In this document: one piece after another, positions 56,991-57,652 of the stretch | Layout of the letters: every line of letters starts with the position of its first letter | How positions within the stretch are numbered: position 1 is the stretch's first letter | The notes under the pieces: generated by a model | What the model was told of the DNA's origin: nothing | Seen by the model: only the letters and a program-made list of their open reading frames with translations | Databases searched by the model: none | NCBI RefSeq assembly: GCF_044647545.1 | Contig: NZ_CP172818.1 | DNA: 64,000 bases | Strand: one strand, 5' to 3' | Origin: Escherichia coli | GTDB taxonomy: Bacteria; Pseudomonadota; Gammaproteobacteria; Enterobacterales; Enterobacteriaceae | Program-made: the position numbers and the translations under genes

Positions 56991-57652
56991 CCCCTTCACT
57001 CCCCCTTTTTTTCCTTTTCCTTTCTTATAAAAAAGTCCCACAACTTTCGCAGGAAGCTCGCCCCCCCCCCCTTCAACCCGCACCACCCCAAAACCCAAAC
57101 CCCCCCCGCCTGGGCAAAAAACACCGCCACCATGAAAGGTATAGCATTTTCTAACACCCTCCGGCCCCTTTCTTTTTCCCCCATTTCCCGCACCCTATCA
57201 AAACCCAGAGTTTCCCCCCCCAAAATGAGGCCACCCCTTTCCCGGTAAAAAGGATGTTTCCCTTTTTTTGTTTTCAGCCCCCCCCCTTTTCGCCCCGCCC
57301 CCCCCCCCGCCCCCCCACCGCAAAAAAAAACACACCCCCGCGCCCGCAAACCGCCACCCTGAGACAGGCGACAGCCCCCCCCCAGATGTTATAGGGGAAT
57401 TTCGTGTGTTAAAAAAAAAATTTTAAAATGATGGCCAACGCGGACCGCGCCCCCCCCCTCCCCGGGGAGACCACACCCTCTCCGACAAAAAAACCTTTTT
57501 AAAAAAAAAGGGCGTTGCCCAGAGAGGGAGAAGACGACACAAGACAATAAAAAAAAAAAAATGCCGGGTTTTTTTTTTTTTTTTTTTTCCCCTTTTTTTT
57601 ATGATTTTTTTCCCCCGCGGGGCCCCCCCCCTTCCCCCCGCCCCCCGGGGAG
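56991..57652. other. anomalous homopolymer-rich low-complexity block
   Basis: ~660 bp dominated by C, G, A and T runs of 6–19 nt with no codon structure, sharply bounded by normal-complexity sequence (orphan ORF on the left, yigE stop on the right). Confidence 0.9.

Follow-up and report, generated by a model that had tools for sequence, protein, structure and literature searches.

A homopolymer-rich block between uvrD and yigE in an Escherichia coli sequence record is very probably a base-calling and assembly artefact lying over an ordinary SAM hydrolase gene

What is a stretch of some 660 nucleotides worth, in which runs of C, G, A and T follow one another between two ordinary genes of Escherichia coli: is it a genuine insertion of low-complexity DNA, or a fault of the sequence record? 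The question is raised by the stretch of DNA analysed here, a window of 64,000 nucleotides from contig NZ_CP172818.1 (assembly GCF_044647545.1), in which positions 56991-57652 between uvrD and yigE have this appearance. The block is present as the preliminary description had it, with 23 homopolymer runs of at least six nucleotides in 662 nt. This amounts to 35 runs per kb, against 68 runs or 1.07 per kb in the rest of the window. The longest tracts are C11 at 57061 and again at 57298, A13 at 57549 and T20 at 57569-57588 (the last had been given as T19), and several shorter tracts of C8-C9 and A9-A10 accompany them. When the statistic "same base as the previous one" is slid along the 64 kb, it exceeds the mean by more than 4 SD at only two places, the block itself and 42860-43232. 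As already noted from the letters, no coherent ORF lies within the block. A tandem-repeat search of the block finds no repeat architecture, only trivial short-period rows within homopolymer runs. An Rfam scan of 56000-58500 at permissive thresholds returns nine matches, all far under the gathering scores and all on the part with A and T runs, and we read them as chance matches to low-complexity sequence.

The locus was then viewed in other genomes by a megablast of window positions 56400-58000 against 5426 complete E. coli genomes. The uvrD and yigE flanks are found in 5425 of the 5426, and 1511 genomes (about 28%) give a full-length collinear match with a gene between uvrD and yigE. The alignment spans this locus in a single piece, with 1601 nt in the window and 1614 nt in the relatives. 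The 25 matches listed are all 85.9% identical and all have, between uvrD and yigE, a gene annotated as "SAM hydrolase/SAM-dependent halogenase family protein"; the closest relatives of the window among the matches listed are carriers of this gene. The reference protein of 300 aa, WP_000751631.1, gives the Pfam domains SAM_HAT_N (PF01887, 3.6e-53) and SAM_HAT_C (PF20257, 3.9e-18); we refer to the gene as SAM_HAT. The fluorinase among its relatives is FlA and the chlorinase is SalL. The family, known as DUF62 or SAM hydroxide adenosyltransferase, is described as kin of fluorinase and chlorinase (review PMC10491745). The features of the locus are as follows.

54466..56628, plus strand: uvrD (DNA helicase II), intact, with coordinates mapped from the annotated reference.
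56683..57580, minus strand: footprint of the SAM_HAT gene, mapped via alignment, unreadable upstream of about residue 240.
56683..56858, minus strand: correctly read 3' part of the SAM_HAT gene, identical to the reference except for a 1-nt deletion.
56859..57654, plus strand: corrupted stretch, comprising the 5' four-fifths of the gene and the spacer to yigE.
57581-57654: spacer between SAM_HAT and yigE, 74 nt in the window and 82 nt in the relatives.
57655..58419, minus strand: yigE (phosphodiester glycosidase / NAGPA family), intact; from 57655 on the window equals the reference.
In the relatives, minus strand: the SAM_HAT gene itself, a 903-nt CDS of 300 aa (WP_000751631.1), convergent with uvrD, as annotated.

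For the comparison we used the ST648-lineage genome NZ_CP008697.1, together with the homology blocks of ST648 against K-12 and of the window against K-12. The window aligns with NZ_CP008697.1 in three collinear pieces. The first of these, of 43 kb, is 99.89% identical to the ST648 reference, while the block is about 29% different; outside the two places picked out by the sliding statistic, differences from ST648 are sparse. From 48319 to 56715 there is no difference at all. The block had been taken to start at 56991, but the corruption begins at 56859, which is 132 nt further to the left. On the right the boundary is exact: the window last departs from the relatives at 57654, directly before the yigE stop codon, which starts at 57655. 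The HSP of the window with K-12 also begins at 57655, that is, K-12-type homology and correct sequence resume together at the yigE stop codon. The statement that both flanks are normal therefore holds for the yigE side, where the stop codon abuts the block and the sequence is clean from 57655, but fails on the left, where 56683-56990 is the 3' part of the garbled gene and not spacer. Over 56859-57654 the mean run length is 2.01, against 1.40 in the true sequence, and the longest run is 20 against 7. The exact 254-aa YigE product is widespread in public assemblies, and one assembly with exactly this protein (L009) carries a normal SAM_HAT gene. At the other end of the locus, the uvrD stop is followed at 56629-56682 by a REP-like, GC-rich palindromic spacer, which is partly common to K-12 and inside which K-12 homology ends.

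Is the block related to the gene that stands at this position in the relatives? In a pairwise alignment, the register between window and reference shifts by no more than about ±2 nt, up to the right edge, where the window falls 7 nt short, so the block is collinear with the ordinary same-locus sequence of close relatives. The alignment of the corrupted stretch has 234 mismatches and 16 gap columns in 810 columns, which gives 72% identity between 56859-57654 and the true sequence with a score of 315; 100 shuffles of the block reach a mean identity of 50 ± 1% and a best score of -137. Perfect 13-20-mers survive deep within the block, for example the islands CCCAGATGTTATA and GGAATTTCGTGTGTTAAA. 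The protein level gives the same view. An ORF of 77 aa (56700-56933) matches residues 218-290 of the real SAM_HAT protein at 92% identity. On the minus strand, a 117-aa ORF (56996..57349) aligns by BLASTP with SAM_HAT residues 82-195, ungapped and in frame, at 32% identity over 114 residues with E = 3e-13. This ORF had been regarded as a mere translation artefact rich in G, K, R and E, which the in-frame alignment contradicts; it is spurious, being a garbled ghost of SAM_HAT residues 82-195. Given the collinear alignment, the 72% identity against that of the shuffles and the in-frame ghost ORFs, the block is to be seen as a garbled accessory gene, and neither as an insertion nor as spacer DNA. 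It corresponds, in garbled form, to residues 1 to about 240 of a widespread SAM_HAT gene coding for 300 aa, together with the spacer to yigE.

On the whole, the DNA under the block shares position, strand and length with the gene of the 1511 genomes, and its footprint matches in all three respects the gene annotated in close relatives. What differs is that the gene in this record is without an intact ORF and has about 29% of its positions wrong; in the window we find no intact ORF with both SAM_HAT_N and SAM_HAT_C, only fragments. The record says nothing on the function of the SAM_HAT enzyme.

The damage has a direction. Up to 56858 there are no substitutions, and the sole prior error is the 1-nt deletion at 56715. 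From 56859 on, the mismatches per 50 alignment columns are 10, 2, 5, 8, 20, 19, 13, 21, 18, 22, 7, 10, 21, 18, 16 and 21, and after 57654 they are 0. Errors rise in a graded way over about 200 nt, level off near 40% and cease abruptly at the right. A rise in one direction only that ends at a join, past which the sequence is at once perfect again, is the mark expected of an artefact. The base missing at 56715 is a G in a non-homopolymer context, 144 nt before the onset of errors and about 35 nt past the end of K-12 homology; its loss frameshifts the last 10 SAM_HAT codons and alters the end of the 77-aa ORF. The bad read probably had its first error here.

The kind of error is also informative. 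Among the 234 substitutions, 169 (72%) are copies of a neighbour, meaning that the wrong base equals the previous or the next true base, while 2000 permutations give 117 ± 6.8 with a maximum of 139. Substitutions to C make up 120 of the 234 (51%), and all 12 substitution types are present in the block. True bases of A, C and T that lie inside runs are retained in 84-91% of cases, single T in 39% and G in 47-58%. Differences at codon positions 1, 2 and 3 amount to 22%, 31% and 33%, so that the excess at the third position is only slight, and the non-coding spacer suffers no less than the gene, with 38 of its 82 positions changed. This spectrum points to signal overlap and not to mutation or selection: overlapping signals from adjacent positions give such a pattern, and it is unlike mutation under selection.

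The block is not reproduced in independent records, as an artefact would not be. The megablast summary for the 5426 complete E. coli genomes contains no full-cover match above the band of 80-90% identity, the listed matches being all at 85.9%, and none of these genomes has an intermediate state of the block. Ten spurious ORFs, including the one of 117 aa, have no exact match in a collection of 15 billion proteins, and a 45-mer taken from the block has no match in the GTDB species-representative genomes.

The sites at which the ST648 type has DNA missing from K-12 are given below with the amount of ST648-specific sequence and what the window holds in its place.

ilvC-ppiC: 9 nt specific to ST648; 5 nt in the window.
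ppiC-rep: 54 nt specific to ST648; 35 nt in the window, with smear-like substitutions.
glmZ-hemY: 636 nt specific to ST648; 201 nt of junk in the window, including A55.
uvrD-yigE: 1039 nt specific to ST648; 1026 nt in the window, 796 of them smeared.
corA-yigF island: 1574 nt specific to ST648; 0 nt in the window.

All five sites are damaged or lost in the window, and a sixth, the hemX repeat, is 24 nt short. At the first four, the damage sets in 0-35 nt past the left breakpoint and ends at the right breakpoint or within 28 nt of it; for the main block its end coincides exactly with 57654/57655. The four damaged intervals make up 2% of the window, yet by far the greater part of its differences from ST648 falls within them. 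The DNA shared with K-12 is practically free of faults and carries ST648-type SNPs, with about 97.2% identity to K-12, and at the homology boundaries of the extra DNA of K-12 (54, 50 and 831 nt) the window agrees with ST648. So tight a confinement of the damage to non-reference DNA points to an assembly process that depended on a reference.

A second block of this kind lies between glmZ and hemY.

42962-43105, plus strand: second junk block between glmZ and hemY, T/C-rich and almost G-free, then A55 at 43030-43084.

Between the glmZ and hemY anchors the window has 201 nt, against 636 nt in ST648 that include a 591-nt hypothetical gene; the junk takes the place of most of these 636 nt. The polarity is that of the main block, in that perfect sequence decays from left to right and recovers abruptly after A55.

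Smaller deviations are seen at other places. The flanks of ppiC show a 4-nt deficit at 16611 and, at 16948-16967, one of 20 nt that is accompanied by a 1-nt insertion and by three smear-like substitutions. These defects sit exactly at structural breakpoints between the K-12 and ST648 types, and the version of the ilvC-ppiC-rep spacer in the window occurs in no complete E. coli genome, the best being 94.8%. In hemX, at 44370, a tandem hexamer repeat is shorter than in the ST648 reference by four GGTGCA units (24 nt), and ST648 in turn has more units than K-12; the deficit could be natural variation in repeat number or a collapse of the repeat. Single-base homopolymer indels also separate the window from NZ_CP008697.1, for example at 6017, 24121, 24260 and 37258. 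They coincide with genes annotated "frameshifted" in NZ_CP008697.1 (yifB, wecA and thrP), and these four indels are probably errors of that reference and not of the window.

At the corA-yigF junction (59593-59739), the ST648-type relatives have an island of 1.57 kb that contains DUF943 and DUF3289/YPO3983 genes and is bordered by a duplication, 147 nt long, of the corA 3' end. This island is missing from the window, where the corA 3' end occurs once, as a mosaic of the relatives' two copies in which the conserved YGMNF motif becomes DGMNF. No complete genome exceeds 98.2% identity to this junction. The same CorA protein variant is found in three metagenome contigs of other lineages (DNA identity 92-98%), and it occurs naturally in such lineages alongside the island as well as in its absence. 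The missing island and the mosaic corA 3' end could reflect natural recombination or a collapsed repeat.

With a probability of about 0.9, we regard the block as a corrupted read-out of ordinary DNA, that is, an artefact of base calling and of an assembly that depended on a reference. Of the two alternatives left by the preliminary description, the artefact is favoured by the collinear gene, the error gradient, the non-biological spectrum and the absence of the block from all 5426 genomes, while a low-complexity insertion into the uvrD-yigE spacer has fallen away. In collinearity, gradient, spectrum and non-reproduction alike the block appears as an artefact should. Judging by the closest relatives listed, the strain almost certainly carries an intact 903-nt SAM_HAT gene on the minus strand, together with the 82-nt spacer. 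Homopolymer compression, which had been proposed as a check, lowers the identity to the true sequence from 72% to 60%; the smear merges different bases and does not only lengthen runs. Nor does the block resemble the native spacer of K-12, which is 146 nt long and against which the best local score is 14.

How could such a block have come about? Only the first ~230 nt past uvrD were read correctly, and from 56859 the calls worsen from left to right. Neighbouring bases are smeared into runs, with C over-called, G and isolated bases lost and the register largely kept, until the bad stretch is joined abruptly to good sequence at 57655. We suppose that a reference-guided assembly left gaps at strain-specific insertions, the reference used being a guess on our part, and that the two large gaps were filled from left to right with a single untrimmed low-quality read. 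The filler read was probably a capillary (Sanger-type) trace, although the technology too is a guess. Late in a capillary run the peaks broaden and overlap, and spacing-based callers still give one base per expected position; neighbours would therefore be copied, length kept and one dye channel made dominant. Flow-based methods (454, Ion Torrent), nanopore and PacBio make mainly indels or homopolymer-length errors, and these would not keep the register while replacing isolated bases. Illumina phasing does give neighbour copies, but its reads are generally too short for a graded stretch of 800 nt.

The block has much in common with untrimmed read tails and gap-filler artefacts. It is collinear with the true sequence, its error is directional, it ends in an abrupt join and its length is nearly preserved; it shows neighbour copies with one base over-called and another dropped, it occurs in a single record only, and the sites are those where a reference-guided assembly would have gaps. 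It differs from them in its unusual length (about 800 nt) and in the lack of N calls, and the second block is compressed and contains A55. With several hundred good bases ahead of a bad tail of 800 nt, the raw trace would have measured about 1.4-1.5 kb, a considerable length for one capillary read, and the lack of N calls in the block counts against the untrimmed-read mechanism. Since the second block is compressed, with 201 nt for 636 nt, and is not length-preserving, the two blocks may differ in the process behind them.

Could the damage be computational in origin, for instance through infilling of non-reference segments by a model or a heuristic, through lossy reconstruction, or through deliberate perturbation of a natural window? 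Such an origin would fit the strict limitation of the damage to segments missing from a K-12-like reference, the absence of N calls, the filler-like look of A55 and the absence of the junk from all public collections queried. We consider it very unlikely nevertheless, as 800 nt remain in register with the true gene, with perfect 13-20-mers and a few genuine indels of 1-2 nt. An in-register ghost with few indels derives from a noisy measurement of a real molecule: a free-running generator would not regain the register, and indels would not arise from a predictor that works position by position. The smooth rise of the error and the channel-like C/G bias also look physical.

It is very improbable that the block is real DNA, namely a SAM_HAT pseudogene of which ~800 nt were hypermutated by an unknown local process matching bases to their neighbours, with two dozen tracts as the outcome beside uvrD. 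In its favour stand the presence of the sequence in the record and the good quality of its flanks, and nothing else. Divergence of about 29% would be limited to 796 nt, where the relatives match at ~99.9% elsewhere, and would have a razor-sharp edge at a stop codon on one side and a graded edge on the other. We know of no mutational process that fits the neighbour-copy pattern together with all 12 substitution types; diversity-generating retroelements (DGRs) target A in regions of ~100 nt, and deaminases give C to T. Like damage at other reference-absent sites of the same record, and the count of 0 among 5426 genomes for an intermediate state, also speak against real hypermutated DNA. Simple-sequence contingency loci were considered as well, since they share with the block long homopolymer tracts that would be prone to slippage if real. 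A locus of this type in Haemophilus, Neisseria or Campylobacter has a single tract, the gene or promoter around it is intact, and the length of the tract is all that varies between relatives. The block has 23 tracts, in which each of the four bases is represented, scattered over a destroyed gene, and the gene of the relatives is intact with a longest run of 7, so the block is rejected as a locus of this kind.

A naturally divergent allele, brought by recombination from a distant lineage or species, has next to no chance of being the explanation: accessory genes often have divergent alleles and this locus is variable, with the gene in 28% of E. coli genomes, but the block has no intact ORF, its differences over the codon positions (22%, 31%, 33%) show just the slight third-position excess, its composition and run-length distribution are unlike coding DNA, its divergence is graded along the gene and not block-like, and no similar allele is found in 5426 genomes, the listed full-length matches being all at 85.9%. 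An old pseudogene or divergent allele would be marked by a clear third-position excess or by two sharp edges, and the left edge here is graded.

Overall, the block is almost certainly not a genomic feature and not new biology. It represents a common gene and its spacer, badly mis-read, and is therefore the sign of a faulty sequence record; its value lies in quality control, as a data-quality flag on the record. At least two loci are badly misstated, 56859-57654 and 42962-43105. The sites at 16611 and 16948-16967 and the base at 56715 are probably misstated too, and the same may be true of the hemX repeat and the corA-yigF island. In the annotation of this record, the real genes for the 300-aa SAM hydrolase and a 196-aa hypothetical protein would be missed, and spurious ORFs rich in G, K, R and P could be called instead. 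The tracts should not be linked to uvrD regulation or slipped-strand hotspots; the earlier suggestion of such hotspots beside uvrD is baseless if the tracts are not in the DNA. In pangenome work, the damaged sites would score as gene losses or as novel sequence. Damage at DNA missing from a K-12-like reference is, in turn, a usable signature by which other bad stretches in the same assembly may be found.
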